Of a stretch of 64,000 bases of DNA, positions 8,358 to 31,051 are shown piece by piece. Numbering within the stretch: the stretch's first letter is position 1; each line of letters begins with the position of its first letter. Both the position numbers and the translations under genes were made by a program. The DNA lies in contig CM097882.1 of the NCBI GenBank assembly GCA_044892505.1, positions 321,966,001 to 322,030,000 of the forward strand. Reading direction: 5' to 3'. The notes below the pieces were generated by a model that was not told the origin of the DNA, did no database searches, and saw nothing but the letters and a program-made list of their open reading frames with translations. This stretch comes from Schmidtea nova (taxonomy: Eukaryota).

Positions 8358-11300
8358 CTATACCATCATTATCGTCTTTTCCTCGTATCGTTCTTCATCT
8401 TCTATTTGTTTCCAGAATTCTTTACCTTTCGTTCTTCTTTGGAATTCTTTCTGTATCTCTTCTGGTATTTCTATTCTTTGCTTCATAATTTTAATATCTG
8501 GCCATTGTATGGCTGTCGCTTTGTTTCTCTTTCTGTATCTCCAATATATTATCATGCTTGTCGTCATTATCCCATATGCTATTAATATTCCTATGCTGAT
8601 TAATCCTATTACTGTTTTTCCACGGTTTGTTTCTCCTTTATTCTGGTTCGCTTTTATCTCATTTTGGGTTTGAGCCTCTGGCTTCTTCTCTTTCTGTATT
8701 TGACTCTTAACTTTGTTCATTACTTCTTGTGTAGACCAATGGCGGTTTAGTAGTTGTTTGACGTTATTTTCTTTTGTTCGGTTCTCCACGTTTCCTGGTT
8801 CGATCTGTTGTTGTAGTTTCTCTGAGATCTGATATAATCCGCATTCTGGTTTTTCTGAACCTTTTCTGGTGAAGGTACATATCGCGTATGTCCTATTTAC
8901 TTCCATTTTCTTTAATTCGACTTTTTCTTTATTCTTTATTTCTTTACAGTGGGTTAGGTTGTCTTCTTCTCCTTCTGGGTTATGCTTTGTCCAACATATT
9001 CCTTTAACTGTCTGATCGAGTCCTGTTAATGTCAGAGTTCTTTCTGTCTTTGTTAATTCTTCTTCATCGAATTTCAGTATCTCTCCTTTTTGGAATGTCT
9101 TGCAATGCTCTATTCCCTCTTGGATTCCTCTCTCCCAGATACATATACTTCCTTCTTCATTCATTTGTATTTCTTGTATTTCGATTTCCTTGTTTGTTCG
9201 TGATTCGTCGCTTGTCTGAACTTGGTATTCCTTCCTTGGTTCGTTGTATGTTCCCCAGCATAGTTTGTTGCTACTTGTTTTCCTTATTGTTATGGCCATT
9301 TGTTCTATTATTATTCCTTTATCGATACGTTTGGACATTGCTAGTATTAATGCTATGCATACGCACTCCTGTTGGGGTGATATTCTTTCTCTCGTTTTAT
9401 TGGTGCTTTTCTCTCCTTCTCCTGGTTTGTTCGTTGTATTTTCCTTCTGAGTTGCTGGTCGATCTATTGTGTTTTTGATCTCTTTCTTTGTTGGTTTTAC
9501 TTTGTACCACTCAAGTCTGGGCGTTTCATATTTTTGACATACGACTGTCTTAGGTAGCCCTGACTTCTTTTCCTTTCCTATTATGCATATCCGATGCATG
9601 ATTCCTCTATCCATCCCTTCTATTCGTATTATATCCTGGTCGGATTTTCTGATTATGCATTTTAGTGGGTTATCTTTCCCAATTGGTTCATCCTCTCTAT
9701 TCCAGCATATTTTCTCGACCTCCTGGACATTTACTATTTTTATCCCTGTTTGTAGGTTTGTTGCTTCTTCCCTATTGATTAATGTCAATATTATTGTTAG
9801 ACCCAACCATTTTGAACTCTGCGGTAGGCTTCTGGTTCGCCTTTCATATTTTTTCTCTTCTCCTTTAATCTCTTTTATTTCCTTGTCTTTGTTGTTTATT
9901 CCTAGTTTTCCGCTTTTTGCTTCTTTCTTCTTTGGTTCTTCTCGTGCTTCTTCTTCTAGCATTTCCACTCCATGGCTTGTACTGTCTCTATTTGTCCATT
10001 GGGTTACCGATTTCTTTGGGTTTATCTTGCGTATCCATATAGCTGATAACGCGATTATTACTGGTATGGTCGCTGTTAATATTCCTAAGCCAATTAGTTC
10101 TTTAATTTCTTTATTCTCGTCTGTTTGTATAGATTCGCTTTGGTTGAACATTATTCCGTATTGTCCCTTTAGTTTTCTCATTAATTGTTCCCGTTCTTCT
10201 TGCTTTCTTTTGACTTCCTTGATAACTTCTTCGGGTGTCCATTTTGCTTGAGGGTCGGTTATGGTTTTTTCTACGTCCATTTGTTCATTCGTTTGGCTTA
10301 GTTCCCTGAATTCGAGTTTCCTTGTTATTCCTTTTGATGTTGCGTTCGCTGGTGTATAGTAGGTTTCGCATCTTTCTTGTTGGTTTCCTAGTGCGTCCGT
10401 TTTTTCTATTGTACATACTTCGTATTCGCTATTAAATTGTAGTTTTTCGATCTTGATTTCTTTATTTGTTTTTCTGCACTCTCTTGATTGTCTTCTTATA
10501 TATTTCTGGACTATTATCCAACATATCTCCAATGTTTTATTCTCTATTTTCCATAATGTCAGAGTTGCTGATGTCTTTTTCTCGGATTTTGTCGTAACTT
10601 CTTGGCTTATCGGTTGTTTATTGTTTTTAAAGGTAGTGGTGTACTTCGGTTTCCCTTTGTTTCGTTGTCTTCTTTTATTTTTTCGTGTTAACGTTTTAGT
10701 TCTTGTTCCGGATGAAGTGGTGTATATTCCGCATTCTAGGTCGTTTATCGTTATCTGATCATTTTTCTTTACGAGACATATTTCATAAGTTTGTTTACTT
10801 TCTAAACCTTTTATTTGTATCGTCGTTGCTCCTGTGCTTGTTCGACATTGTGGTGTCTTTCTTTCATTTGTTTCTTTTTCGTACTTCCTCCAGCATACTC
10901 CTTTCACATTTGGTTCTATCTCTTTTATTTCTAATGTTATGTTTACTTTCTGTTTGATTTGTTTATTTCTCTTCCTCGTTCTCCTTCTGAACTTTATTAC
11001 TTCTCCAGGTTGGAATGTTTTACATTTTGTGGTACCTTTCTTGTTTGTCTCTTTTTCTAATAGGCATAGTTTGTACATCTTATCTGCTTTTACTTCGGAT
11101 ACTTTAATTACTTTGTTTGTTGTTGGTTTTCGACTTTTCCTTATTTCATTTACGCCGATTTCCTCGTTATTCCTCGCCCAACATTTTATGTTAGTGTTCT
11201 GTGTATCTTCCACTTCTGTTATTGTCATAGTTTCAATTTCTATTCCTTCCTCTAATCGTTTTATCATTATTAGTATGAGTGCTAAGCATAATACCTCCAT

Positions 11301-14300
11301 TTGGTAAGACACTCTTTCGGTTTCGTTTGTGGCAACTCTTGCTTCGGGCCTCTCTATTGTAATTCGTAGGGTTGGTGTTGTTTGCTTATCTATTGCCTGG
11401 GGTTTTTTGTTTTCTGTTCCCTGTGTCTCTGTTCTTCCACATTTTCCGAGGATGTAATGTCCTTTGGGTGACTGTTGTATTGTCATGGCTGCTTTAGGTG
11501 TTTGGTATTTTGCACATGCGATTGTGTTGTGTGATCTTGGATGCTTTTGTTTTCTAACGGTGCATATTTTGTACCAGGTATCTAGATCTAGGTCGTTGAT
11601 CTCTATGATTTCTTGCTCGTGTTCTGAGATTCTGCAATCCATCGGGCTATTTTGTTCCGTGATTTTGTCCTTTTTCGACCAACATACTCGTTCGATTCCT
11701 TTTGCGTTTTTTATTTGTATTATTGCCCTTTCTTCACATGTCATTCCTTGACTTGGATTAATTAACGTTAAAATCACTGTTAATAATAGTAACTCTGGTC
11801 TGAAGAATGGTTTTATAGTTGATTTATAGCCTGTTCTTTGGGTGTCATTTTTATCTCCTTGGTCGTTTTTTCCTTGTTCTCCCTCTTCATCTCTTTGTTT
11901 TTCGTCTTCCTTTTTCTTTTCTTCCTTGTCTCGTTTCTTGTCTTTTCTCTCGTTTTCCTCTTTATCGGGTGGTTCGTGATCGTTTGAATTTTCTGCGTTG
12001 TTACCGTCGTCACTATCTGTGTTGTCATCTCCCCCTGGCTCGTCGAAAATGTCGTCCTCGACATTGATTTCTTCTATTAGTTTCGCATACGCTAATGTCG
12101 TTAGATTACTTGCCTCAAATTCTTGTGTTTCTACCTGCTCCGGTATTACTTTGTTAGTGGATTTATGTTCCAAGATTTCCTTTTTGGCCTTGATCCAATT
12201 GTTGATGTATGTCTTCATCAATTCTTTCCATTTGCCTGTGTATTTTTCTTCTTTCGGGCTGGTTGTGATTCTTAGATCCTTTCTTTCCATAAACATCTTC
12301 AATATCTCTGGCCATTTATACGTTATTAAGGCACTTCTTATACACCAGTTTTGGTTATGTTCTGTAAACTTATTAATCCTGAATGCTGGTTCGTTAGTAT
12401 TAGGATTTATCCACGTAAGTATTGATTCTGTTAGTTCGACGTTGTTCATCATTGCTAGTACACTGGGTTTCTTGACCGTATCAGTTAGGTGATCTATTTC
12501 TTCCTGATTTGGGACGGTTTTTAGGAAGTTGACCATTTCCCAATTATGTGTTAGTAACGCTACATCCAAAATTGAATTATCTTTATCTGTTTTACCTGTA
12601 AGTCCTGCACCTGCTTTGTATAGTTCCTCTAATACCTTTGTTTTCGTTTTGGCCCTTGCTGCAAATACCATAAGTGTATCTCCTTTCTCGTCTATCATAT
12701 TCATTTTGCTTCCGCAATTTAGCATTACTCTTGCAATTTCCATTACTTTTCTATCTTTGCCATTTCGTAGAGCTCTATGTATGGGCATTATTCCGTCCTT
12801 TGGTAGTAAAAATGTTACTGGCATCTCCTTTTTTATTATTACTATGTCGTTTCCGTTGTAAGTTCCTTTTGCGTATGCGTGTACTTTTTCAACTAATGCA
12901 CCGAGTATTTCCAGTGCATGTTTACTATTCTCGAATTCTGGTAACAATTCTTTTGCTTTTTCTTGTATCGCATCTAGTCTAGCTTGGTATGGTGCTTCTG
13001 CTTTAAAGAGTGGTGTGAGTTTCTTGTTACTTTCTCTTTCTTTTTTCTCTAAAACCTGTTTGCATTTTTCGGGATGGTTTAAGATTTTTACTAATTCCTC
13101 ATATTCGCTTACTATCGTCTGGTATTTCTCGTTAAAATTGCTTATGTCTTTGTATGTTATTAGTTTATCAAGTGGTTTCGCACACCATTTCCTAATCTTA
13201 TTGAATAAGGCTTCCTTCTCTTTATCGAATTTGTATTCTTCTTCATTCTTTGTGATGTTTATGTTTCCTCTGTCTAATAAGGTTAGTAATGTCTTCTGAT
13301 CACAAGTAAATTTCAAAAGGTATCTTAACAGTGCGTTTTGTCCTTCGCTGTATACTTCGTTTATGTCTAAGACCCATGTATCATCTTCTGGTCGTTTCCA
13401 TTTGATTAACTTACGGATCGTGTTGCATTTACCAATTTTGATGGCCTCTTTGATAATGTCTCCTTTAACTAGTTCGTCTATCTCCCAAGTGGAGTTAGCT
13501 ATTATGTATTTCAGCATTGGTTGGTGAGAACTCCATATTACGTGATTTAGCACTGTTTTATCTTCTCTATCTCGTTCTGTCCAACTGAAACGGGCTTTTA
13601 TCAACAGATCTACCATTTCTTTATCTGCTTGGTAGATGGCTGCTGTCATTAATGGAGTTTCCTGTTCACGATTCCCAACGTCTAGATTTTGGTTTGTTTC
13701 TTTTGCGATTTTCAAGAATTCTTTTGCTCTTTCAATGTTTTTACACTGAATCGCATTATGTAAGGCTGGTTGTCCTCCTACATCTTTTAATAAGAGTATT
13801 TCAGGGATTTTTATCAATAATTCAGAAATAATTGGTTCGGTTGGTAATCCTTGTGCGTAACGGCTAATTATGTGTCTAATGTCCTTTGATATGCCTGCTT
13901 CGTCTCTAACGTGCCATCTTCCCATTATCTCTCTCGCCTTCAATATGATTTCTTTATTTCTGATTTCCTTTTGTCTTATTTCTGCTTTGTCGTCTTTAGT
14001 TGCGTTAGCTCTGAGCATATTTATCCTGGCTGTTTGTGATCTAGTTATTATTCGATTTTCTGGTGTTGTAGTTATCGTTTTAGGCACCTTCTTACATCTG
14101 CAGGTGTTTACATATATGGGTCGTATTAACGGTCGATTTATTAGCTTAACTTTGACATTATTGTCCTTCTTGTATATAATTTCATAAGGTCCTCTTCCAG
14201 GTCTTTGGAGTTTCTTAACAGTTCCGGGTATTATTTCGGGAGTTTCTATTATCACCCAATCTCCTGGTTTTAGATCGTTCGCTTTAACATTTTTCTTCTG

Positions 14301-17300
14301 GTCGTGTAAATCCTTATAACTTTCCTGATAAAATTTAATGTTGAGTTCTGCCGTTTTCCATATTTCCTGCATCCTTTCCTTGAATTTGGTTACGTAGTCG
14401 TCATCTTCCATATATTGCGATAATGGTGGCTGATACTCTAAATCTATGGGCATGTTGCATTCTCTTCCATACATAAGTTGAAATGGGCTTAGTTTTGTTG
14501 CTGCATGTATCGACATTCGGTATGCCATTAAACATAATTTTATGTATTCATCCCAGTCAGTTTGGTGTCTGCTGACGTAGTTTGATAACATTCTAATCAA
14601 TGTGCCGTTGAATCGCTCCGTTTGTCCATTCGTTTGCGGGTGATATGGTGAAGTTCTCAATTTTGCTATTCGGAAATAGTTTGTCACCTCGTTCAATAAC
14701 TCGCTCATAAAATTAGTTCCTTGGTCTGTGAGTATTTGTTTTGGAGTTCCGTATCTGCAACATATGTCTTCTACTAGAATCTTTGCTACGGTTTTTGCTT
14801 TTTGGTCTTGCATGGCAAATGCTTCCGGGAATTTCGTCAGATAATCCGTTATCACCAATATATAAATATTTCCGTTTAAACTTTCTGGTAATGGTCCTAT
14901 TACGTCCATTGCTATAGTTGTCATTGGCTCTGCTGGTATCGGCATTGGTTGTAGCGGGTTCTTCCATTTCTTCCCACTATCCTTTCTGGTTGCGCAAGTT
15001 AGACAATTTTTAATCCATTCCTTTATATCTTCTTCCATTGTTCGCCAATAATATTTTTGTCTCATACGGTTTATGGTCTTTTTCTCGGACATATGACCTC
15101 CCAATTTCCCATCATGGTATTGGATCATTATCTCTTTCCTTCTGTTTTCCGGTAAACACATCAATCTCTTTTCCCCGTCTTGTATTAATAACCATCCTTT
15201 ATTTATTATGTAGCGATGTTGATATTTTCCTATATGTTCCTTTAATTCCTTATTATCCTTAAATACCTCCATATTTCGAGACGTTAGGAACTCTATGATC
15301 TGTCCCAATTCTTTGTCTTCTTGTTGATCTTTCTTAAGCTCGCTAAAATCTAGATCCTCCGCTATTAATACACAAATTCGTTGTACATCAGGATCGGTTA
15401 GTTCTGGAAATGTCAGTCTTGACATACAATCTGCATTCGCATTCGCTCGTCCTGATTTAAATTTTATGTCTGGTGAGTACTCCTGTAACTGCATTGCCCA
15501 TCGCATTAATCTACTGGATGTTTCCTTGTGCTGTCCTAACCATACAAGCGGTTGGTGATCTGTTGTTATGCAGATGATGTGACCCCATAGTAAATATTTA
15601 AAGTGTTTAATAGCTAATATAATTGCTAATGCTTCCCGTTCTGTTACTGAGTAATTTTTCTCATGCTTTTTGAATGTCCGGCTATAATATCCGATTACGC
15701 GTTCTTTTCCTTCATCATCGTATTGCCCTAATACTGCTCCTGCTGCATATCCGCTTGCATCCGTTGCAAGTAGGAATGGCTTCTTAAAGTCTGGGTGTAC
15801 CAATATGGGTGCGGTTATCAGTTTATCTCTTAATGTCTCGAATGCTGTTTGTTGTTCATCTCCCCATATGAAGGATACATCTTTCTTTACTAGTTCCTGT
15901 ATAGGTTTTGCGATTCCAGCGTAATCTTTTATAAACTTTCTATAGTATCCACATAGTCCGAGAAATTCTTGTATTTGGGTTATTGTTTTTGGTACTGGAC
16001 ATTCTTTTACCTTGTCGATATTTCTAGGATCCGGTTCTTTTCCTTTTGCTGACACTATATGTCCTAAAAATGTTACTTTCTCTTTCGCCCAATCGCATTT
16101 TGATGGCTTGAGTTTTAACTTCCATTGTCTAAGCCTAACGAATACATCTCGAATATCCTGTATGTGTTGTTCGAATGTACTAGAGTAAATCAATAAGTCG
16201 TCGATGTAGACCATGCACTGCTTTATTCCGTGGGTGACGAAATTCATGCATCTCTGAAATGATGCTGGTGCGTTCGTTAATCCAAATGGCATCTTTCGAA
16301 ATTGATATAGGTCTCTACCGATGGTAAAGGCAGTTTTCTCCTTATCTTCTTCCTTCATTTTTATTTGCCAATATCCGCTTTTCAGATCTAACGACGTAAA
16401 ATATGCTGCTCCTTGTAATGTTAATAGCATTTCATTAATGTCTGGTAATGGGTAAGTATCCCTTTTTGTCACTGTATTCAATCTTCGATAGTCTATGCAG
16501 AATCTCTGTGTTCCGTCTTTTTTCTTTACCATTACCACTGGAAATTGCCAGGGTGAACAACTTGGTTCGATTACTTCTGCATCCAACATTTTCTTCACTT
16601 CTGCTTCTGCTACTGCTTTCTGTGCTTCCGCTAATTTGTACGGCCTTAATGCAATTGGTGTTTCATCTGTTAATGGTATTGTATGTAGTGTGACATCACA
16701 TGTTCCTAGATCTAAATCGGATGCTGCAAATATATCCTTATACTCTATCAGGAGTTTTTCTAGCTGCTTCCTTTGATCCTCATTTAATAATTCACTATCA
16801 ATATTCCAGGTTGGTTCTTTATCTTTCTCTGCTCCTTCTATTGGCAGTTCGATATCCATCATTGGGGTTAATTTACCTAATCTTTCGTTTTCGTATATTA
16901 TTTTGTCCTCTTCATCGAAGTTTACTACGTTTATTGGGATTTCTCCATCATCGTTTATGTTAACTAGTCCTCTTGCCATTGGCAACGCTTTTCTTTTCTC
17001 GAATCTCTTACTTGGTTCGAAAATCATATCCCCTTGGATTGTCGGATCTATTTTTACGTAACATATTTTCTCCTTTCTTGCGGGTATTATCATTTGCTTT
17101 GAACTTGTCACTTTGGCTTCTATTGCGCATATTTGTCCTGTGCGATCTTTTAGTCTCATTGTTCCGAGATCGATTACAATCTCTTTAAATAGTGCTGGCA
17201 TCAAATCTGTTCCGATAATGCAAGGTACGCTTAATGCTGGTATGACAGCTACGTACGTATCGATTTCCGTGTTTAAATGGCGTATTTTTACCCACCATCT

Positions 17301-20300
17301 TCCTGCTACTTCTACAACTTCTTTGCTACATGCAATTACATGGACGTTTGTCCTTTCTATTTCTCGTCTTTGCTCTTGTGGTATCCATTTGATGTCGATG
17401 GCGGAAATGTTTGCTCCCGTGTCGATCATTGCTTCGATTTCCCTTCCGTTAATCTCTATTGTCGTGGTTAATACTGGACCTGTGTTTGATGACATTACTG
17501 CGATCGTGTGTGTATCTCCTTGTGGATCTACGCTTCTACATCTTCTCATTTTATAATCTTCTGGTATCATGGGATATACATTTGTCATTGGCATCATTTG
17601 CATCGTGCTATTTTTTCCTCCTTGTAGTGGTTCTTGATACATGGTTGGTGGAGGTGCGTAACATTTCCATGCGTCGGCTGGATTCTTTTCGATGTATTGG
17701 GGTGCTTGGTTCTTATACACTTGTCCTCCCTTATAGTCGTCATCGTCATCGTCGTCGTCACTTGAATCATTATAGGTTTTATATCCTTTCATCCTCTCCC
17801 ATAAACCTTTTCTTTCTCTCTTGAGCTGTTGTCTTGCTTGTTCGTCATTCATTATCTTTCTAAATTTTCGTCCTACTTCTTCATCTGTTCCCTTCATTTT
17901 TGCGAGTATCTTCAACAATCTCTTTATTCGATGTATGTCCTTTGAGTGTCCGTGCAACACCATCGTTTTCGCAAGGAATGGTAAAAATCCTACTACCATT
18001 TTCCAATTCACTTTCTTTTCTCTCTTGTAAATATCGAAACACGCTAACATTTGCGTTATTATCACTCTGACGATTTGTATTATTAATATAACTCCCAGTA
18101 TTCCGGCCATCATTTGTCCGAATATCAGAAATCTTCCCCACATTGCTTTCATCATATTTTCGGTGGCTTTCTTGAAATGTGCTGGTGACAACAACAGTTC
18201 ATAATTCGGTCCTTCTCGATAATCCGTTCCTCCTGTTATCGTTACGATATTTGACAGTAATGCTTCTCTTCTTGCTGGGAATAATATATTCTGCCTTGCT
18301 GCTTCTAAATCTTTCGGACTATATATTCCATTGTTTGAGACATCTACGTCGCTGAATTGCCTATCCTTTGACAACTGCATTAGCTCGAATTCTCTTGGTG
18401 CTATCACTTCGGATCTTCCTGGGAACATAACCCATTTACCATCTGGTTTTTGATAAAGCGGTCCATACGCATTACTACAGTTGAATGGATTTGGTTCAAA
18501 CCCTGGTGGATTTATGATTCTCGTCACCGGTTGAACGTATCGTACTTTTCCTTTGTAATCGATTTCTAACTCATTTGTACAGGTTCCAGGTTTCAACTGT
18601 GTTGTTGCTGCTAGCGATGCATGTGTCTTTTCGCAGATGTATACATACATTGCTTCTCCAACCACCCTTCCGAAATGTCCTTCTCTCAGTGGTAATAATG
18701 GCATCGCGCTATCTGGATTCGTAATCGCTACGGCTAACTTTGTCTTTAATATTTCTCGATTCAGTATACAATCATTATTGATCAGATCGTAATACACTTT
18801 TTGTAATGAGGCTTGTCCTCTATGGAATAGGAAATCCATTTTATTATTCACATATAGGTGTAGTTTGATATCCATTGTGTCGATTTTGGGTTTCGCGTTT
18901 GGCACTTCTTGTTTTGACACATATATTCCTGGATAATTCGTTTCGTATACCGTTGTACTACACTTAAGGGTTGCTTTCCCTTTTATGAATCTCATTCCCA
19001 CATCTTGATTTGTGGTTATCAACACTGTTGGTGTGGCTCTCATTTCTATCCGTTTTTCTCTATGATCCGGTTTCAGTTGTCTTTTATTCTCTAAAGCTTC
19101 CTTGAGGTGCTTTGCTCTAGCTTTGTCGTCATCGTCTTCTTCCTGAAACGTTTTTCCTTGAATTTCGTCGAACTTTGCTCCTTGTAGCAGTTGTAACTGA
19201 CATTCGTTTACCTTTGGTTTGTACACTAATGTTGACATTCCCGTTTGACACATGCTCCTGTCGATTTTACACATGGATAACGTTTTCATTTCTCCCGTTG
19301 TTGGTTCGAAGAATGCTTCATAGCTTTTTAATTCGACTATATACGTATCCATTACTACTAGGTTGGTTGCGGGTACTCCGAATATCGGGTAGGTTTCTCC
19401 TTGACAATATCCTTCTCCTCCCGTAATCCGTCCTGCTACATAGTAGGTTTGTTGCAGCATCATTCCTGGCTTTCCTCTTATCTTGATTTTATCTCTTGTT
19501 GTTACTTCTCCATGTTTAAACAGTGCTTCGCAGTCTTCTCCTTGTAACACGATTGGTTCTCTTTCCGTTCCTGGCATGACAATTGCTGAATAATGTCCTC
19601 TCCCGCAGTAGAATGCGAATCTCGTCTTCTGCACTTTACATTCATTCACCATTGTCTTTATGAGTTCTGCTTCTTGATACACGTGGTACCATTGTTCTTT
19701 TTTAATCTTCTGCAACTCTACTGGAGTTGCATCTTTGCATTGCTCCGTACCTCTCAATGAATACTTTTCTCCTAACTTCATTTGGTCGCAATCAAACACT
19801 TCGAATGCTGTTGCGCTATCGGTGCTAATCATCCATATCAACATCATCATTATTATAGAACTCAGATTCATTGATGACTTTGCGTTTCCTGTTCCTGTTT
19901 GTTCCTTCTCTAACTCTTCCAATATTTTTTCGAATTTCTTTTTCATATTCTTGGCTTGCGTTTTCTTCTGGTTAGTTTTTATAAATGTTTCCCATCCTCC
20001 TTTGTTAATGACGTAGGGTTCTATTTCTCTAGCTATAATCTTTGCGGTATTTTTTATATGTCTCTCTAATGCAGTGGGTTTTTGTCGACCTCTACTCAGT
20101 GTTAATAGATTGTAGATCGTGTATGCGATGGCTATTACGTATTTATTATCAGTTTCCGCTCCTTCTGTCAATTTCTTTATTAACATCGTGGTTCCTTGCC
20201 AGTCTAAATGATTTGACTTCGTCTTTTCTTTTATGAATTCCGGTAAGATGGGTGCGATTGCGTTGTGTAGTGACTTCGCCTTTTCGCTTATCTCAGTTAT

Positions 20301-23300
20301 ACGCCAGTATTTTCTTAATTCCGGATCAATTATTGCCAATATTTCCATTATTGTTTTCGATATCCATTCCTCCCCCTGACATATTGGTGTTGTCTCTTTT
20401 TCTTTCATCTCCGCAATTTTATTTAGTTTCTTTAAACATAATTCCCATTGATCTTGTCTCTTTTCGTCTTTATTTCTTACAACTACATTCGCTAGGTCTG
20501 TCTTGGGTCTACCTCTAGGTCGTTTATCCATTCCTGTGCCTGTTTCCACAAATCTTGTTGCTCGTCCAGTTTCTTCCGTGACATCTCTTGGTTCGTTAGC
20601 TCTCTCTTCCAACCATCTTTCCATTTCCTGGGTTAATTGTACATTTTCGACATTTGCTCTTCTCGTTTCGTCTTCTGTCAAATCGTTTATTTCTTCTATT
20701 ATTATTTCTTCTTCGACTTCTGTTCCTCCGGTGTTGGTTATTTGTATTGTCGTAGGTAATTCTTGTATTCTTTCGAAAATATTGTCGTCTTTTTCCTTTG
20801 TTAATTCGGTTAATTCTTCTATCATATCGTCGCTGTCTGTAAATATTTCGTCCACGTCGTATGGTTGTGGTGGAGTCCTTTCTCTATTTCCTCTGGGTGT
20901 TGTCTCAGATCGTCTCGAACTTGTCCCTGGTGTTAGTGCTGATTTCATCGGGCTCGGCGTACTTATACTTCCGTGTGGTTTATGGTTTTCTTCTTTACGT
21001 TTCAATGGTTGACCCGCTATTGCTTCTACTGTCAAGGTATTCATGAGGTCTAATTGTGCTGGTGTTATTCCGATTTCCAAACTGTTATCTAATGATCGTC
21101 CTTGGTGTTGTAAATGGAATGGTGGTTCGTATCTCAATTTCTTTTTAATATCTCGAATTTTTTCTGCTATCCCTACCCACAACTCTTCCTTATCCTTGTT
21201 TGGGTATATTACTCTTAGATGTACTTTCTGTGGAATTTCCTGTGAGAATTCTTGGTTTCTCCATTTCCTAATTACATGGTCTAGTTGTTCCGGGCACCAC
21301 TCGTTAACTCTTTTATATTCCGCGATTGCTTTTGCTACTTTACGCAAGCATGTTATATCTTCCCCATTTACCACGAAAAAATCTGCGAGACCCTTTATTA
21401 ATTTTCTCTTACCGTGCGCATTAGTTTTTAATATTTCGACGAATTCTTCCGTTTTTTGCTTTTCCCTTTCTAACCACATGGCCGCTGTTTCTGGTCCATC
21501 TAGGTCTATTGGCGTAGCTTTCCTTGTCACCATGCAAACCCTTCCTATCTCTGGTTCGCAGTCATCTTCAATTCCTCTTTTATATTCTTCTTCATATTCC
21601 CCTTCTTTTGGTTCCCAACATTTTCCTTTCTCGTTCCATTGTTTTTCTACGGGTGTTCGTATTCGTCTGTTGAGATTGAGTTCTTCTAATACATTTTCCC
21701 ATTCCGGCCAAATTCGCCAATTTCGATAGATGTCTACTATTTGTTGTAATTTGCACACAACTTCTTTCCGTCGTTCCCGTTCTCTTTTCTCGTCTTTAGC
21801 AGTTTCTCTGGGTGTATCGTCCATTCTGCTAACGTGGATTGTTTGGTGATTATCCCATATACCGATTTTATATAATCGTCTCTCATCGTGATCCCATAAT
21901 ACATGTTCGTTGTATTGTATGATTATGTCGTCTTCCCATTCGTCTTCTGGTTCTCTTTGCACTAGTGTCTCGTTGATGACATTTATTAATTCTTTAATGG
22001 TGCAATCCGCTACCACTTCAATTTCTTTGGTGTCTTCATTAGGCAATTCTACTGAAATTTTTAGATCTGTTATTTTCCCTTGTCTGAACATTGTTTTTCC
22101 CATTTTTGCGATTAATTTGTCGTGTGAGATCTGTGACCATCTCGTGTGACTTGTGTCACGTATGCACTCAATACATCGTTTCAATTTCTCGTATTCGCTT
22201 CTCATTAACTCTTTTCTATGTTTTTTGACTTGTGGTATGATTTGTTCTATCAGGGAATTTAGATTCTTTCGCAAAACTCGTTCTTTCTCGTATTCTAACC
22301 GTGGTTTTATTCTCCTTTCGAAGCACGCGTTTGCTTCCCTTGCAACTTCTTGTAGGTTCTCTTCTTCTTTTTCATCACATATTGATAACAGGGTTATTTC
22401 TCCTGGCCATATACCTGTTTCTACTAAGTGAGTTCTTTTCTTTACGAGTCTATTCTGCGAATAGATGAATTTGTTTTTGTATGAGCTCCCTAGTCTATCC
22501 TCTACCCATCTGTAGATATCGTCTGTAAATGGAGTTTTGATCCAGATTCTTGGTGTAGACGTATTTATTATTATTGAGATGGTGTAATTGAGGAGTGGTT
22601 CCTCTATTAATTTCCCTACGTATCGATTCAACATGTCTACCTCCCGGTCTTGTAACCATTCTTTGTAGTTCATTTGTAGTAATGCTTTCATGAATTTCCG
22701 ATATTGTTTCTTGTCCATGAACTCTTCGTTATATATTACTTCTAGCGAGTTATCTAGTAATTTCTGGATTTCATCTACTTTTATCTGTGTAGGTTCTGAG
22801 GTCTTTATTACTTCTCTCTCTTTATTTTCGTCTTCGGATTCATTTAATATGTCTCCTGCTAGGCTACTGATATCACTATCTTCTTCTTCATCGGAAAACT
22901 CTCTGGTGGTATTTCTTAGCATATTAATATGTGCTGTTTGGTTCGTTTCCCCTTGTATATTCTCCGTTGGTTCTGGTTCGTTTTTGTCAATTTCTGGTGT
23001 TGGTTCACTCTTATCCTCTATTACTTCGACTTTTTCCATTTTCTTTCCCAACTCCTCTATCTCTTTTAAACGTCTTCTTATCATTTTTCCTTCAAATATT
23101 CGCCGGATTCGGGTTTCGTGACGTATTGGTGGTGGAATTTCTTCTGGTTCTATTTCTTTAATTCTCATCACATTTCTTTTTGTTTCTACTACTCCCATGT
23201 TTTCCCATATATCCGTTAATTTCAATTTTACTGATGGTGCATCTCCTATTTGTAAGAACGCTTCTCTGGGCAGTTTTGTCGCTCCTGGAATCATCTGGTT

Positions 23301-25307
23301 TACTTTATTGAACAGTATTTCCACCTTTTCTTTTGCGTTATATTGGAATCGAAACATATGGTCGTTGGGCATGATTACCATCATTCCTTTTTTCCAAATT
23401 TTTCTTCTCTCTTCCTGGTTTATCTCGGTTTCCACTCCCTTTTCTGCTTCTTTTTCTACTTCTTCATCTTTTTGTACTATTTCTTTTCGACTTTCGTTGT
23501 CGGCTGGATTCGGGTCTATCGAATTCATTTCCAGTGTGGTTTCTTTCTCGCGAGTGTCTGTTTGGTTTGTTGCTCTTAGCATGTTAATTCTTAGAGGTTG
23601 TCGTTCTCTTTCTTGCTGTTTTTGTTCATCCTCTCTTTGTATTCTTGCCCATTCCTGAGCGTGTCGTGCTTGACTTTCTCGATTCAATCGTTCGTTTTCG
23701 CTTTCTATTTTTCTCATCATGCTAATTTGCTGTTGATTGGTTTGCGGATTTCCTCTCGTCGTATTGTTTATAAGTTCCGTCAATCTTTGGACTTCTTGCA
23801 TTAAATGTATTTCTTTGGGGGTGGTTTTGTTCTGATTATTGTTATTATTGACTTGTTGGTTCCCATAATCTGGTCGGTTTACGGTATTTGCTTGATTTCC
23901 GTAATTTGGTCGGTTCCCATTACTCTGCCAGTTTCCTCGTTGATTACTTTTTTGTCCGCAATTTCTTGAATAGTGACCAGGTCGTCCGCAATTATAACAG
24001 ATTATTGTAGAACATCTGCTTTCCGAGTGTCCTTTGACTCCACATTTTCCGCAATTCAAATTTTGATAGCATTCTTGCTGCCAGTGTCCCAACTTCCCGC
24101 ATGTTTTACATTGTTTTGTTTGTCTTTGAGGGTTGTAATTGTTTTGATTTTCAAAGTTCTGCACTTTATTTCCTTCATTCCTTCGTTGAGGGGGTGGTCG
24201 GTTTAATTGTTGCGAATTTGGAATATGATTGTTGAGATTTACTTCTGGTTCGGTTTGCGCTGTGTCCATGACTAAATAAATTCTGCCTTCGCTTCCTATC
24301 ATATGCAATTCAAATCGGTTAGCTGTTTCTAACGCTTGATCTATGGTTTTGCATCCTTGACATCCCACTTGTGCTCTTATGTCGGGTCTTCTTAATCCTC
24401 CTATGAAGATGGCTGCCATTAACTCCTCGTTTATTGGACCTCCATCCTTGAATACCGATTTTGCTAATTTTTTCAGTTCGCTCGCGTATACCGCATTAGA
24501 TTCATTCATCTTTTGTTTCCTCATTGAGAATTCTATGAATGCCTCGCTTAGCACTTTATTTATTCCAAATGTTTGTTGGAAAAAATCCTTTATCGCTGTC
24601 CAGCTTGTAGGTGGATTGGTACCATTTTTTGCTTCCAAATATAGGTCCAATGCACTATCTTTCAAGTATAACTGTATTCTGCTTACCGTTGTTTCAGCTT
24701 TCCATTTGCATACTTCCACGAATATGCCAAATTCTTTTAAAAAGGTTTCTAATTTACTCGCATCTCCGTTGAACGGTTCTCCTGAAAATTTATCCTTTAT
24801 TTCTTCTCTTGGTTCACCCATTTCAATTCCGCTGTCTTGAGTTATTTTACTTTCGTTTCCTCTTGTTTCTAGTTCGTTGTTATGTTCGTCTTCCGTTTTA
24901 CTCGAGCTTGAATCGCTTTCTGTTTCTCTTATTCCTTCGTTATCTGATATTATACTTTCGTTATCACTCGCGTTGATTTCTATCTCTGGTTCTACCTCGT
25001 TTTCTACTTCTTCGATATTATCGTTGTTAGTCTCGTCGCTCTCTGTTTCACTTGCTTGGTTCTCCTTGGGTTCGGCTTGGTTTTCTTTGTTACTTGAGCT
25101 GTTGCTTATTATTGACAATTTATCGTTCTCGGTAATCGATTTATCTCTTATTATTTTCCTCGATTTACTCCCTTGTGGGTTATCTTTGCCGGCTTTCTGC
25201 TTTTTTGTTGATTTTGTTGTAGTACTAGTTTTGTCTTTTTTATTACTGTTGCTATCGACTTTCTTTTCCGTTGGCTTTACTACGACACTCTTTGCTCCTT
25301 TTCTCAA
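8358..25307 (-). CDS. 5649-codon Gag-accessory-Env-Pol-accessory polyprotein
   Basis: One stop-free frame of 16.95 kb. The listed start is TTG; first in-frame ATG is at 24821 (codon 163). Subdomains listed separately. Confidence 0.95.
   Translation of the reverse strand: [5649 protein letters not shown]
8541..9815 (-). CDS. Polyprotein: membrane module B (signal-like segment, 3 Cys-containing FN3-like repeats, TM)
   Basis: [16 protein letters not shown]; repeats of CW..C..I.I..l....Y.IC..C..Y/F; internal [35 protein letters not shown] then RYRKRNK. Collinear with module A. Confidence 0.6.
10032..11800 (-). CDS. Polyprotein: membrane module A (signal-like segment, 4 Cys-containing FN3-like repeats, TM)
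   Basis: [69 protein letters not shown] resemble the FN3 L..(P).T.Y strand motif; TM [22 protein letters not shown] then RKINPKK. Confidence 0.62.
12400..13790 (-). CDS. Polyprotein: two blocks of ankyrin repeats
   Basis: [33 protein letters not shown]; second block [33 protein letters not shown]. Confidence 0.85.
14060..15200 (-). CDS. Polyprotein: integrase (HHCC, DDE core, GPY/F)
   Basis: [50 protein letters not shown]. Confidence 0.97.
15410..15800 (-). CDS. Polyprotein: RNase H
   Basis: [43 protein letters not shown]. Confidence 0.96.
16040..16810 (-). CDS. Polyprotein: reverse transcriptase (gypsy type)
   Basis: [46 protein letters not shown]; YIDD at 16197-16208; FLGH. Confidence 0.98.
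17130..17490 (-). CDS. Polyprotein: aspartic protease
   Basis: [12 protein letters not shown] (DTG at 17415-17423) and CIIGTDLM. Confidence 0.95.
17950..19871 (-). CDS. Polyprotein: envelope glycoprotein, class III fusion type resembling chuvirus G / herpesvirus gB-like retroelement Env
   Basis: Signal [22 protein letters not shown] then [86 protein letters not shown]; C-terminal TM (~18040-18143). Cys spacing matches my recollection of chuvirus-type glycoproteins. Confidence 0.8.
19975..20370 (-). CDS. Polyprotein: Bcl-2-like helical domain
   Basis: [16 protein letters not shown] fits BH2 (L..WI..NGGW..F); spacing from KLTEG to GGW is 61 aa versus 60 from ELFRDG to GGW in BCL2; BH1 NWGR not conserved. 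Confidence 0.55.
20502..20525 (-). other. Polyprotein: AT-hook motif KRPRGRPK
   Basis: Exact match to the AT-hook core PRGRP with basic flanks (aa ~1595). Confidence 0.6.
21020..23390 (-). CDS. Polyprotein: four ubiquitin-like (beta-grasp) domains at ~23180-23390, 22378-22590, 21830-22065, 21020-21228
   Basis: [45 protein letters not shown]..QTIHV and [43 protein letters not shown] align by eye to ubiquitin; [29 protein letters not shown] fits the ubiquitin C-half; the first ([13 protein letters not shown]..) is weakest. Confidence 0.55.
23958..24110 (-). CDS. Polyprotein: nucleocapsid, three CCHC zinc knuckles
   Basis: [42 protein letters not shown]. Confidence 0.97.
24290..24800 (-). CDS. 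Polyprotein: Gag capsid-like domain
   Basis: [58 protein letters not shown]..FIGGL typical of gypsy Gag. Confidence 0.85.
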
Positions 25308-25923
25308 GGGGATTACTTTTGTATACTCAATTTTCCTGTTCTATCTCTTATCGTTTTTCTGATTCTTCTTGCTTGATTGATTGATTTGATTGATTTGTAT
25401 ATCTAAAATACAAAGGTCCTCAACGATACATTATTGTTATCGTCGCGCTTTTATTCCCTTTCTTTCGGGATTACTTATTACTGGGTTTTCATTATTTCCC
25501 AATTCCCAGGTTTCCCTTTTATTTTTAGTCTATTTAAATTATCTATAGACTGGTCACAATTATCTATTTACGTCGTAATAATTATCTATACTTTATCCAA
25601 TTAATTACTTTTCCCACAGTTTCCCAATTTATTGGTCGCTCGAGCGCTCTAATTCCCTGAGTCTTTCTGACTCGTTTATCATTATTTTATCATTTCTATT
25701 CATTATTCCCTGCTAGCAATCGTTTTACTCATTCTGCCGGTTGTTCCGGTCAGCCCAAAAAATTTTTACTATTCTCCTTGCATGCTTTACTTAAGGTTGC
25801 ATAATCAGCTTTACTCGCATTTTCTTAACTACTGGTGCGCACTACTCTAAATCTCGTCGACGATTATACTAAGGGTCTATATTCCCTCTATTACTATTTA
25901 TCCGGATATATCTATAGTTCACT

Positions 25924-26115
25924 ATGGCTCTTCTGGCCTCAATTTTATATCTCACATGGCTCTATTGGAATCAATTTAATCTCTCAAATGGCTCTCTTGG
26001 CCTCAATTTAATCTCTCAAATGGCTCTCTTGGCCTCAATTTAATCTCTCAAATGGCTCTCTTGGCCTTAATTTAATCTCTCAAATGGCTCTCTTGGCCTT
26101 AATTTAATCTCTCCA
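25924..26115. repeat. 32-bp tandem array, 6 copies (partial 7th at ~26140)
   Basis: Unit atggctctcttggcctcaatttaatctctcaa at 25924, 25956, 25988, 26020, 26052, 26084. Confidence 0.95.
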
Positions 26116-26155
26116 TAACGCCTAGCTAGGTCATTCAATATGGCTCATTGGCCTC

Positions 26156-26505
26156 AACCCTTTTTTTCAAGGGACAAACCGCTAATAACCCTTTGTTTCA
26201 AGGGACAAATCTCCTAACCCTTTGTTTCAAGGGACAAATCTCATAACCCTTTGTTTCAAGGGACAAATCTCATAACCCTTTGTTTCAAGGGACAAATCTC
26301 ATAACCCTTTGTTTCAAGGGACAAATCTCCTAACCCTTTGTTTCAAGGGACAAATCTCATAACCCTTTGTTTCAAGGGACAAATCTCATAACCCTTTGTT
26401 TCAAGGGACAAATCTCCTAACCCTTTGTTTCAAGGGACAAATCTCCTAACCCTTTGTTTCAAGGGACAAATCTCATAACCCTTTGTTTCAAGGGACAAAT
26501 CTCCT
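26156..26505. repeat. 29-bp tandem array, 11 near-perfect copies plus 1 degenerate
   Basis: Unit aaccctttgtttcaagggacaaatctc(a/c)t, period 29 from 26187 to 26505. Confidence 0.97.
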
Positions 26506-26984
26506 AACTTTACTTAACCGGTTAATCACAATTCCCTACTTCGCTAGCGATTAAAATTTCTCAGCTGAGTTATAACTACTTCTATGCGAGCTGACTATGC
26601 ACCTTTCTATTCTTTCAAAAATGTCATTTATCTCTCTATTCTATCCTAACTAAATTCTGATCAGTCTGCTTCAACTTTTTATTTATTTTTCTTATGCGCG
26701 CTTTACTCCATCAAGATTTCCCTATCTCTCTCCCCAATCAAAATATACAAAAAGATCGCGTTGGTCCATTAATGCAGGATGTGGTGATCAGTCACATCAC
26801 AAAAACTTTCCAACATTTGCGATGGGCCCCTTTCTATACACCCTGACTAGGTTGATCAATCGGTACCTCCCAATGGGTTCTTATCGGACTACTTTGTAGT
26901 AGCTCAAAAATTATTTATATATTACAATTGTACCCATGATTTCATCATTAATAGACCAACAAAACTCCACTTAAACATTATTTA

Positions 26985-27769: not shown

Positions 27770-28243
27770 AATTTATGCTGGGTTCATGGAGGGGTTAGAT
27801 GAAAAATGCTCTAACAATGACTAGGGATCCCTCATCCATGATCATGCATAAAATTGCAATTCTACACTCAAGCGCCCTGGATTATTTCCCTGTATAATCA
27901 AGTTGGTGATGCGCAGGGTGGTTAAACAATGATGGGCAGGTGAGCACTATCGCTAGTACTACTCCCCATTTATGTTTACGGGTTCATCGCTGCCGTTAGA
28001 AGGACTTATGCTTTAATCATCTACTTATGTATTCCGCGTTAATCTTTCAGAAAATTTAATTTTATTATTGCTCAGTCTGCGAGAAGTATTTCAACGAATG
28101 CTCGCTTAATTATTTAATTATCTCTATTCGATATTTTGTAAAATGAATTTATACTTTTGTTCTATCTTTACCTAATCATTGGTAAAGCTAATTAAATCAA
28201 TTTAAATGAACGATAAAATTCTTAAGCCAATACAACAATTTAT

Positions 28244-28840
28244 TCAATTTTTAATGAGTTCGGTAAAAACTCCCGCCGGAGGAAAAATCTCTGTCAATAA
28301 TGCCTCCTCGGTCATCTGATGTAGACCATCGACTTGGCTTTGTAATTGCTGGGCAAATAATTTTCTCTGTCTCCGCCGTTTCTGCCCAATGCGCTTGCGT
28401 TTCTGGTGCGCATTTACCGATGAGGTGGTTGAATTTACTGCAGGAGCTGTCTCATTCCGATTTTCGATTAGATCTGCGACATCCGTACCAATGGAATTCA
28501 CAGTCTTCTTCTCTGATGTCCAAGCTTGGTACGTAACTGGACGGATTTGCTCTCTGAGCTCCCTCTCAATATATGAGGCAGTTACGGAATGGAGGCATTT
28601 TCGGAGTTCTATCTTTGTAGCCTCCCATTCCATTTGGTACTCGGCTGCAGTCTGTTGGGCGCGCTCGGTTTTACTGATTTGCTCCTTCATTCGGGCCGGA
28701 GCAAACCAGCTTTTGCGCAAATATGCAATCTGTGCCTCTGCTTTGATCAATTGTGCCTTGAGGAGACCCACTTCCTTGTCCTGGGCCCTCCGAATCCGCC
28801 ACATCTTTTCCAATTCCCTCTGTATCGAATCGGTGGTCAT
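28244..28840 (-). CDS. LTR-encoded 198-aa protein (5' LTR copy)
   Basis: Identical translation to 1613-2209. Confidence 0.65.
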   Translation of the reverse strand: MTTDSIQRELEKMWRIRRAQDKEVGLLKAQLIKAEAQIAYLRKSWFAPARMKEQISKTERAQQTAAEYQMEWEATKIELRKCLHSVTASYIERELREQIRPVTYQAWTSEKKTVNSIGTDVADLIENRNETAPAVNSTTSSVNAHQKRKRIGQKRRRQRKLFAQQLQSQVDGLHQMTEEALLTEIFPPAGVFTELIKN

Positions 28841-29026
28841 TCTATAATTGGTTTAGGATATTTACTTCATGATTAAATGATGTGAAAAAATGAAACTGAT
28901 TATAGGGTTATTTGGCTACGAATATGAATTATTAAAAACACAATACTAAAACTCAAAACAACAAAACAAAAACACTGCTGAATATTAATATTTAATCACA
29001 ACTTTTAAAGATTTGACAATCAGTTC

Positions 29027-29506
29027 TTATCTCCGAAACAGGCTATGCAGTTCGCTGTTAATCGGTTTCTGACGGAGACGAGCCCAAGAGAATGAGGGTT
29101 GTCCTTTCTGGCACTCCTTGCCGAACGGTTTTCGTGGCAGGAATTCGTGTAGGCCTAGTTGGCATAGTTCCCGACGAGGGATATGCCCCCAATAAATTAC
29201 ACGGCTTGTCCGTCCATCGGTGTCCTTGATCAGTACGACAAGGCGGCCAAATTTGTTCGAGTACGGCCTTTGAGAAATCGGCCAGTTCGGTCCTCCTCGA
29301 TAGAATATTTGGTCGTGCCCTCCTGTCCATATCGAGAACGGGCATTTTCGGCCAAACCCCTGTCGCCACTTATACATTTGGCAGTTGAGGGTCCGCAATA
29401 TCGATGCTGGTAGATCCTTGAGCTGCGAGATATTTCCATTTCGTAGATTCACTTGTTCCATATTCCGTAGTTGAGTCAATCGATTTATAAGTTCAGCTGT
29501 CGACAT
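29027..29506 (-). CDS. LTR-encoded 159-aa protein (5' LTR copy)
   Basis: Identical translation to 2396-2875. Confidence 0.55.
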   Translation of the reverse strand: MSTAELINRLTQLRNMEQVNLRNGNISQLKDLPASILRTLNCQMYKWRQGFGRKCPFSIWTGGHDQIFYRGGPNWPISQRPYSNKFGRLVVLIKDTDGRTSRVIYWGHIPRRELCQLGLHEFLPRKPFGKECQKGQPSFSWARLRQKPINSELHSLFRR

Positions 29507-30621
29507 CTATATTACATTTATTGGATATAAAATATCTGAGTTAAGGGGGGAAAATTCGTTGATAATTTAATTATACTGTATATAATCACAAAAGTTACTT
29601 AAAAATAATAAGGTAAATTTTCTTTCTCTCCGCCGTGATCTACCATGGTCGGAATAAAGAGTTCATAATTAATCCTGTGCTATGTACAGCAGTCAGGAAA
29701 TTATAAAATTTATTCGAAAATTCTCCGCGCTATATACAGCGATCGGAAGATAAATTAGATATCCGCGCCATGTACGACGATCGGTCTATTTTTAGAGTTT
29801 CATGACTTGATGTGGATTCTCCGTCGCATTCCAATGCGATCGGTATTTATCGATCGGGTGACGCTGTAGGTGAGATACTAATTCCGAATGAAATCGGACT
29901 TTAACCTTCATTGAAATTTTCCATTTTATCGAAATTATATGAATTAGTTTTATTTATTTATCCTTATTCTCCATGCTGGAGGTTCAAATTAGGCTCATTT
30001 TTCTATGCGTTATGATGCTGAATACACCCTACCCTGGGGTGTCTCCCATTACCCAGCTACTCTCCCTATTTAGCCCTCGACACTCGTCCTCTGTGCAACC
30101 AAATGATGACTTTTTACTTATCGCCAGAAAACTGTCTGGACGTATTCGCATTATCGATATTCTGTGACTGAAAATTTTACTCGACTAAATAAGCATTAAA
30201 ATTCTCTAATCTCGCTGATAAATATCTAGTTAAATTTGAATGATGTAATTTAATTATTTCAACTACCAAATTAAATATGAAAACCGGAAACAATAAAAAG
30301 GTTGAACCGCCATGTGAGACCCTGAGGCCCCACGACGACGACTCGGACTCCCTCGCCGCGTGAGCAGCATAGGAAGTATAGCTATATGCATTAAAGTGTC
30401 AATAAAAATAATCAATGAAAAAATAAAATAACGTTTACATATAAACTTTTAATTAAATAAAAATCATGGGTACATCATATAAGATAACATAAAAAAATTA
30501 CTTCCGTACTTGAATGTGTGGTTCCTTGTATGAAGTTCGGTTCTTTCAAAAATTATTACTCAAATCAAAGTTTAGTCTTGATTGTGAGTGAAAATGTAAA
30601 ACGTCTCTGTCTGTGATTTTT

Positions 30622-30643
30622 GGATCGGTATTTATACTGATCC
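30622..30643 (-). promoter_or_regulatory. Candidate LTR promoter TATA box (TATAAATA at 30629-30636) inside a palindrome
   Basis: Plus strand ggatcggtatttatactgatcc. Confidence 0.55.
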
Positions 30644-31012
30644 GTCTGGTTGGATTGACCAATCAGGATCAGGCCGTCCATCAAAGTATTTTTATTATTT
30701 TATTCTAATCTAAACATTATTTTGTTTCCTTTTCCGGTTTCTCGCTGGGTGGTCCTGATTTTCCAAGTAATTAATTAATTATTTGTACTATTATTTTATT
30801 TAATTCTATTTTTTCTTATTTCAGGCCCCCTTTTGCGGTTGTTTACCGGTTTATTTTCAAAATTTCCTTTTACTGAAAATTTATCAATTATTATTTGTCG
30901 TTTTATTGTTATTTTTAATTTGTTTTTCTTGCTATTTTTATTTTTATTATTTCTTTATTGTTTCATGCTTTTGTTCGTTTTATTGTGTTTTTAGGTGATT
31001 TGGCGGGCCCAA

Positions 31013-31014
<2 letters not shown>

Positions 31015-31051
<37 letters not shown>

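Follow-up and report, generated by a model that had tools for sequence, protein, structure and literature searches.

The 64,000-nucleotide stretch of Schmidtea nova DNA analysed here (the window; contig CM097882.1, positions 321,966,001 to 322,030,000) raises the question of whether a retrotransposon encodes a Bcl-2-like domain just before its envelope glycoprotein (Env), and whether the hydrophobic leader of Env could double as the tail anchor of that domain.

A Burro-type element with one long open frame

The element is a giant Ty3/gypsy retrotransposon of Burro type, an assignment made from the published description rather than by direct comparison with the named Burro sequences or their RT; its size of ~30 kb, long LTRs, high copy number, domain order and MATH/TRAF region all match. 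It spans 29.9 kb (1163-31015) with identical 3.2-kb LTRs, and its true extent may be larger, since the outer end of the 3' LTR adjoins a stretch of N. At least 150 close copies are present (150 scored of 1,106 candidates, at 93-100%). The polyprotein runs in the order Gag, inserts, Bcl-2-like domain, Env, PR-RT-RH-IN, ankyrin repeats and membrane modules. The main features of the element are:

27794..31015, minus strand: 5' LTR, 3,222 bp, 100% identity to 1163..4384
8358..25340, minus strand: single open frame of 5,660 codons, stop-to-stop, first Met at 24821
23958..24821, minus strand: Gag, Retrotrans_gag-like region (PF03732, E 1.1e-4, which falls below the Pfam cut-off) and CCHC knuckles (PF00098, E 5.9e-8)
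14175..17450, minus strand: Pol, with protease, reverse transcriptase, RNase H and integrase (Pfam RVP, RVT_1, RT_RNaseH, Integrase_H2C2, rve)
6407..7786, minus strand: accessory ORF of TRAF-like layout (weak RING, TRAF zinc fingers, MATH)
1163..4384, minus strand: 3' LTR, 3,222 bp, 100% identity to 27794-31015

The TRAF-like ORF, also encoded by the element, provides context for a death-signalling role.

The preliminary description of this locus knew of no retrotransposon-encoded Bcl-2. This was mistaken, as the available part of PMC6431247 (citing Jurka 2007 and Grohme et al. 2018) describes in planarian Burro / GYPSM1 a BCL2-like motif and an in-frame Env between BCL2 and the protease, so that the existence of such a motif is not new. 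Those elements, as described there, share with the present one the length of ~30 kb, the long LTRs, a very high number of copies, a single ORF of at least ~5,000 codons, Gag CCHC knuckles, ankyrin repeats and MATH/TRAF. They differ in that the present ORF has 5,660 codons, its TRAF region forms a separate downstream ORF, and extra membrane modules follow the ankyrins. No BIR (IAP) domain like that of Burro1 was matched in the scanned parts, namely the polyprotein and two accessory ORFs. The present analysis adds support for the fold from a predicted structure, signs of selection, a likely single capture and a specific model of processing.

A degenerate Bcl-2-like domain upstream of Env

The region between the inserts that follow Gag and Env is laid out as follows:

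20502..20525, minus strand: RGRP AT-hook/NLS-like motif upstream of the Bcl-2-like domain, from sequence
20373..20459, minus strand: extra helix with a loose BH3-like pattern (model helix 6-29), preceding the Bcl-2 core and outside the structural match
19977..20372, minus strand: predicted degenerate Bcl-2-fold domain, ~132 residues (ORF residues 1657-1788)
20139..20171, minus strand: BH1 equivalent with TDNK in place of NWGR, as aligned by profile to cellular Bcl-2 proteins
19983..20015, minus strand: BH2 motif YVINKGGWETF (ORF residues 1776-1786)
19869..19976, minus strand: charged linker, predicted helix, between the domain and the hydrophobic segment

The canonical BH2 arrangement W/Y-x-x-x-x-GGW is present, as first noticed. 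The BH2-type pattern, which was composed after the motif had been seen, has a single match in the ORF and none in 5,000 shuffles (GGW by itself turns up in 856 of the 5,000). The earlier claim of a degenerate BH1 at the correct spacing from BH2 also holds, with T-D-N-K aligned opposite the H/N-W-G-R of cellular proteins; NWGR itself is absent, and its Trp and Gly are likewise substituted in most sister-family rows. The BH3 signature L-x-x-x-G-D is absent from helix 2, where His-Asn occupies the Gly-Asp position, a reading that comes from the 15-sequence alignment A2 and the helix order of the model. The helix at 20373-20459 was considered as the BH3 helix of the domain and rejected, because structural alignments begin downstream of it and the Pfam match of a sister family begins at a later helix. 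The RGRP motif recurs as weak Pfam AT_hook matches in family B and is also found in relatives P0004 and P0010.

Homology to the Bcl-2 family is supported through relatives of the domain rather than directly. In all five sister families of the genome (B-F), Pfam recognises a Bcl-2 domain at the corresponding position in the polyprotein, two of the families having been first detected by this very Pfam match, and a profile built from these five without the present family scores the present domain at 30.5 bits, against at most 9.9 for shuffles (n=2,000). Pfam Bcl-2 is matched by 13 of the 15 rows of A2, the A2 profile matches Bcl-xL chains (E 3.6e-8), and hhalign to Bcl-2 reaches 97.7% through relatives and 78% for the present domain alone. 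Word-index protein searches with the domain returned no matches, while a full HMMER search found the relatives; the Atlas search gave no usable match.

The resemblance could in principle be due to chance, the region being a helical linker that happens to contain GGW. Pfam on the domain alone returns weak DUF matches and no Bcl-2 (PF00452) match, its PDB sequence matches have E values of only 1.4-1.9, and the single-sequence AlphaFold model (pLDDT 44.8) is uninformative. Yet all eight of those weak PDB matches are Bcl-xL, and profile, Pfam-row, hhalign and structural results concur on Bcl-2, so that chance is largely refuted and is hardly a credible explanation.

Predicted structure

The comparison of an AlphaFold model with known structures, proposed in the preliminary description, gave a predicted Bcl-2 helical bundle. 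The model, built from the 15-sequence alignment, is of moderate confidence (pLDDT 62.6, pTM 0.58), falling below 50 across the hydrophobic segment. In the VIA comparison it aligned with Hydra Bcl-2-4 at Z 13.7 and 2.9 A rmsd over 136 residues, a score to be read with care, since the tool warns that helical bundles may often reach Z values of about 13; the top 29 rows were all of Bcl-2 fold and the first unrelated row had Z 7.4. Foldseek against the PDB listed 45 rows, all of them Bcl-2-family chains; neither there nor in the viral fold search did a Foldseek match reach E<=0.001. The structural alignments begin at model residues 31-37 (~20372 in the window), in agreement with the domain start of 20370 given earlier. 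Taken with the family profile and the A2 match to Bcl-xL, the model supports the original suggestion of a Bcl-2 fold, in degenerate form.

The predicted bundle, the GGW of BH2 and the BH1-BH2 spacing are shared with cellular Bcl-2 proteins such as Bcl-xL, Bfl-1/A1 and Hydra Bcl-2-4. Unlike these, the present domain has neither NWGR nor the BH3 Gly-Asp and lies within a polyprotein. In a viral fold search the best rows were the Bcl-2 folds of dsDNA viruses (ASFV A179L, BHRF1, BALF1, F1L, N1, A49), likewise captured, divergent in sequence and carried by a mobile genome; those, however, are free-standing genes, whereas the present domain would have to be excised from a Gag-Env-Pol polyprotein.

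The junction with Env

Downstream of the domain the same frame continues into Env:

19806..19868, minus strand: hydrophobic segment of signal-peptide form, with a short h-region, a polar c-region and A-x-A before the Env start
18036..19805, minus strand: envelope glycoprotein, in frame, PF24664 (Monjiviricetes_fusion), E 2.9e-72
18131-18036, minus strand: C-terminal transmembrane segment of Env, from hydropathy

As had been described, the hydrophobic leader begins ~40 residues past the BH2 motif, and it continues directly into the start of PF24664. Cleavable signal peptides have a hydrophobic h-region, a polar c-region and small residues at -3 and -1. This form is seen in 13 of 14 relatives. 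At the predicted cleavage site, placed by position just before the Env start, position -1 is small in 13 of the 14 sequences and position -3 is small or aliphatic in all 14. The segment is thus likely to be the internal signal peptide of Env, as first suggested, a reading that draws on sequence form and conservation. No sequence match to the Env region was found in the PDB. The flatworm Gag-Env-Pol order and an ectodomain lying between a signal peptide/TM and a TM segment are shared with the Gag-Env-Pol errantiviruses described in the available part of PMC13524379, whose Env is of HSV/gB type, a label that for the present Env is taken from published papers rather than from a fold search; unlike the present case, that part of the text contains neither Bcl nor Burro.

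It could be argued that Env is instead made from a spliced or internally initiated RNA, starting at a Met before the hydrophobic segment, so that its signal is never joined to the Bcl-2 domain. In this family a Met is present 22 residues upstream of the predicted cleavage site, and in family E the distance is 23. Such a Met is, however, missing from families B, D and F, and the frame is open across the junction in all six families, which makes a separate Env RNA very improbable.

Since the signal-peptide form is conserved, a cut at this site would at first keep the domain attached to the ER. To this extent the proposal of a membrane-anchored Bcl-2-like product stands, as the tether just after cleavage follows from topology. 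Some features speak against a true tail anchor: the hydrophobic stretch is short, its distance from BH2 exceeds that in cellular family members, and it leads into a signal-peptidase-type site and Env instead of a stop. Its best 19-residue hydropathy (1.37) is below that of all seven cellular-type tails (1.59-2.32) and three host tails (1.71-1.86), although an insertion scale does not separate them (3.1 versus 2.9-4.1). A charged linker of 30-55 residues separates BH2 from the segment, against 9-19 in six of seven cellular-type proteins (the seventh being mis-anchored). It is possible that the segment persists as an anchor remnant of the domain; such an anchor would best be seen as a consequence of how the polyprotein is laid across the membrane, and not as a tail kept from the captured gene. 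No earlier description of such double use of an Env signal and a Bcl-2 anchor was found in the papers available.

The same fold and signal are also compatible with removal of the remnant by signal peptide peptidase or the protease of the element, leaving a soluble domain that possibly acts on nucleic acid through the neighbouring AT-hook. The short, weakly hydrophobic segment, which in the present family ends in a polar, acidic c-region, would fit this outcome, as would the long linker and the RGRP motif upstream. A precedent for the topology inferred here is the HCV core-E1 junction, at which a cytosolic protein, an internal signal and a luminal glycoprotein follow one another; according to the available part of PMC6468556, signal peptidase and signal peptide peptidase strip HCV core of its anchor, whereas the present proposal is drawn from sequence. 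Against removal, the linker showed no cleavage site, and the segments of families B-F equal real anchors in hydropathy (2.12-2.45). We regard removal of the remnant as unlikely, if far from negligible.

Selection and origin

The Bcl-2-like domain is under purifying selection: variants shared among 49 copies comprise 58 synonymous and 11 non-synonymous changes, with omega at 0.05-0.07, a value lowered by the ranking of the copies used by likeness to the present domain. Between families the domain has changed far more rapidly than either Env or RT (45-50% identity where RT has 94-95%), and in the C-D pair its rate of divergence is at least that of the linker. In a tree that bears a long-branch warning, the domains of the six families fall into a single clade (98/98), with the same groupings as those of RT and Env; the placement of the host donor has weak support (68/62). 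This topology suggests that a single capture of the domain from a host gene is likely.

Possible functions of the domain

The explanation we favour, with roughly even confidence, is that a captured, degenerate Bcl-2 fold between Gag and Env is tethered to the ER by the Env signal peptide and damps host death or stress signalling. The element would have captured a host Bcl-2 gene once, in frame between Gag and Env; co-translational insertion at the hydrophobic segment and a cut by signal peptidase just before the Env start would leave the domain on the cytosolic face of the ER, rather than at mitochondria, and the protease of the element would free the Bcl-2-like product from Gag. Lacking NWGR and the BH3 Gly-Asp, the domain would need to work in the manner of the divergent viral Bcl-2 folds, and an anti-apoptotic or NF-kB role such as the preliminary description raised is putative.

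Alternatively, the fold may have been reused structurally, with an uncut Gag-to-Bcl-2 half held by the signal remnant on the Env membrane, where it would serve particle assembly much as a matrix or an anchored capsid does, with no role in death. The domain directly precedes the Env signal in all six families, as well as in database relatives, its canonical BH1 and BH3 residues are lost, and, according to the available part of PMC4358236, poxviruses offer a case of a Bcl-2 fold that serves an unrelated function. On the other hand, BH2 is retained, such elements bear other death-pathway genes, and Gag-Env-Pol elements occur in other phyla, where the available text of PMC13524379 mentions no Bcl-2. 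Structural reuse appears improbable.

A stronger form of the favoured tethering, in which the Env signal peptide is a permanent tail anchor and each Env made also places a viral-style Bcl-2 death suppressor in the ER membrane throughout the lineage, is more tentative and somewhat doubtful. Should the anchor last and the domain suppress death, this would be a Bcl-2 mimic from a reverse-transcribing element and a second route to keeping host stem cells alive; otherwise, it would be a death-regulator fold reused for another purpose. An IAP region of Burro1 has been reported, as related second-hand in PMC13465017, to protect stem cells against apoptosis, and permanent anchoring, if true, would form a second anti-death arm beside it.

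Bcl-2-like domain in the element polyprotein

The Bcl-2-like domain is contained in a single open frame of 5,660 codons (window 8358-25340, minus strand), in which Pfam matches follow the order CCHC knuckles, Monjiviricetes_fusion envelope (E 2.9e-72), protease, RT, RNase H, integrase and ankyrin repeats. The repeats bounding this Burro-type Ty3/gypsy element are identical, which indicates a recent insertion. Out of 1,106 candidate copies of the domain in the genome, 150 were scored (93-100% identity).

Features of the element (window coordinates)
1163-4384 and 27794-31015: identical repeats, 3,222 bp each, bounding the 29.9-kb element
6407-7786, minus: intronless TRAF-like accessory ORF inside the element, with weak RING, TRAF zinc fingers and MATH
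19806-19868, minus: hydrophobic segment, ending at the Env start (19805)
19977-20372, minus: degenerate Bcl-2-like domain (core)
20015-19983, minus: BH2-type motif YVINKGGWETF

The BH2-like motif of the preliminary description is present, as is the hydrophobic Env leader, which starts about 40 residues past it. The BH2-type pattern, composed after the motif had been seen, matched none of 5,000 ORF shuffles. The domain alone had no Bcl-2 match in Pfam; its PDB sequence matches were all Bcl-xL (8/8), but weak (E 1.4-1.9).

A Pfam Bcl-2 search of the genome gave 30 loci that were read, 16 of element type and 14 host-gene-like or host fragments, and further searches with one of these loci and the Env family as queries added more. 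In five other families (B-F; one copy of each read), Gag, a Bcl-2-like domain, a linker, a hydrophobic segment, Env and Pol share one frame. Families E and F, found through Env alone, nonetheless match Pfam Bcl-2 weakly (E 0.002-0.007), and 13 of 15 aligned sequences have such a match, the window's sequence not being among them. A profile of families B-F, from which the window's family was excluded, found residues 1636-1786 as its sole match in the window polyprotein, scoring the domain at 30.5 bits; the best of 2,000 shuffles reached 9.9 and the reversed sequence 0.7. The six-family profile matched Bcl-xL chains (E 3.6e-8), and a profile-profile comparison against seven Bcl-2 proteins of cellular type gave 97.7%.

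With the six-family alignment, AlphaFold returned a moderate model (pLDDT 62.6, pTM 0.58), which superposes on Hydra Bcl-2-4 (Z 13.7, rmsd 2.9 A, 136 residues). In the comparison with solved structures, Bcl-2 folds fill rows 1-29, with Z down to 7.4 at the first unrelated row. All 45 Foldseek PDB matches listed belong to the Bcl-2 family, none reaching E 0.001, and Bcl-2 homologues are the best rows of a viral fold search. Model and profiles agree, and the domain very likely adopts a Bcl-2 fold.

The sister families B-F are high-copy (L090-L099), with ORFs of ~3,000-3,400 codons, and the Gag-Bcl-2-Env-Pol elements form three deep lineages that have only ~50% RT identity to one another. Each of families B-F has a downstream ORF; the four scanned had no Pfam match. 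A fragment of a type B DNA polymerase (PF03175; L095:2-1090), located upstream of a family D copy, probably belongs to a neighbouring Polinton-like element.

Hydrophobic segment as probable internal signal

A full HMMER search found 25 proteins, eight of which run from the Bcl-2-like region into the same Env start. In these eight and the six families (n=14; fragments missing either part were excluded), with the site assigned by position, a small residue occupies -1 in 13 and a small or aliphatic residue -3 in all 14, as in cleavable internal signals. The segment is probably a cleaved internal signal, as judged from sequence. Gag and the Bcl-2 domain would then remain cytosolic, Env would pass into the ER lumen and Pol would return to the cytosol past the Env TM segment; directly after cleavage the signal remnant would form the C-terminal end of the Bcl-2 domain, and insertion during translation would favour the ER over mitochondria.

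Such an arrangement agrees with part of the preliminary description, in which a Bcl-2 tail anchor would double as the Env signal: the relatives share the signal form and the domain would carry the remnant. The permanence of the anchor is weakened on three points. The best 19-residue hydropathy of the window segment (1.37) is below that of 7/7 cellular-type and 3/3 host tails, although the segments of families B-F reach 2.12-2.45 and an insertion scale did not separate window segment and tails. The BH2-to-segment distance is ~30-55 residues, as against 9-19 in 6/7 cellular-type proteins. Finally, a comparable anchor in HCV core is removed by signal peptide peptidase, according to PMC6468556. 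A lasting membrane anchor has at best an even chance. Moreover, Env of this type is preceded by a signal peptide or TM segment regardless (PMC13524379), so that the segment requires no Bcl-2 explanation.

The feature is real and largely known already. The preliminary description knew of no retrotransposon-encoded Bcl-2; a BCL2-like motif in Burro elements is in print, noted by Grohme et al. 2018 according to PMC6431247, which also places Env in frame between BCL2 and protease, the same architecture as in the window element; a planarian is therefore the likely host. Our literature search did not find the signal described as a tail anchor; the Grohme 2018 and 2026 Burro1 texts and supplements may bear on it. 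The IAP region of Burro1 is reported, second-hand in PMC13465017, to shield stem cells against apoptosis, Burro1 transcripts appear once PIWI silencing is lost (PMC8532177), and among viral Bcl-2 folds of divergent sequence the anti-death role may be either retained or lost (PMC11209288, PMC2836074, PMC4358236).

Motif loss, selection and origin

BH1 is degenerate, as had been proposed, with T-D-N-K at the N-W-G-R position, and helix 2 has His-Asn at the BH3 Gly-Asp position. The BH1 glycine is important for BH3 binding. Ahead of the core (20630-20373, minus) lie a helix with W-L-E-E-R, an AT-hook-like RGRP motif and a helix loosely resembling BH3 that could occupy the domain's own groove; parts of these also occur in families B-D and the database relatives P0004 and P0010.

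Selection was assessed in 49 copies (the 29 best and 20 spread along the ranking of 150), counting variants present in at least two. The core has 58 synonymous and 11 non-synonymous variants (omega 0.05-0.07, a value lowered by ranking on domain likeness), Env 124 and 10, and the upstream region 149 and 61. Between families the domain evolves much faster than Env or RT, with 45-50% identity where RT has 94-95%, and in the C-D pair it changes at least as fast as the linker. In a tree with ten host stretches and no outgroup, which carries a long-branch warning, the domains of the six families fall into a single clade (98/98). Their grouping within it matches the RT and Env trees, consistent with a single capture of the domain. 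Among host sequences, an exon with a BH3-like motif (L122:1096-1278, minus) precedes a Bcl-2-family exon (L035) by ~10 kb and is likely part of a Bax/Bak-type gene.

Other features of the element

The TRAF-like ORF is a possible second signalling modulator. Accessory ORFs at 5233-6324 and 4588-5193 (minus) encode a coiled-coil protein (weak Filament match) and a short protein carrying one TM segment, respectively. Past integrase and ankyrins (8361-11850, minus), the polyprotein has more signal-like segments, TM segments and repeated Cys-containing modules with one weak Fn3-like Pfam match (E 0.009); this part, which has a shorter counterpart in the sister families, may yield extra cell-surface proteins. 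In the leader between 5' LTR and Gag, units of 32 bp and 29 bp are arrayed in tandem at 25892-26566. Two stretches (23387-23148 and 22067-21822, minus) are ubiquitin-like by eye and have no Pfam match; a similar one lies shortly upstream of the Bcl-2 domain in families C-F, as described in PMC6431247.
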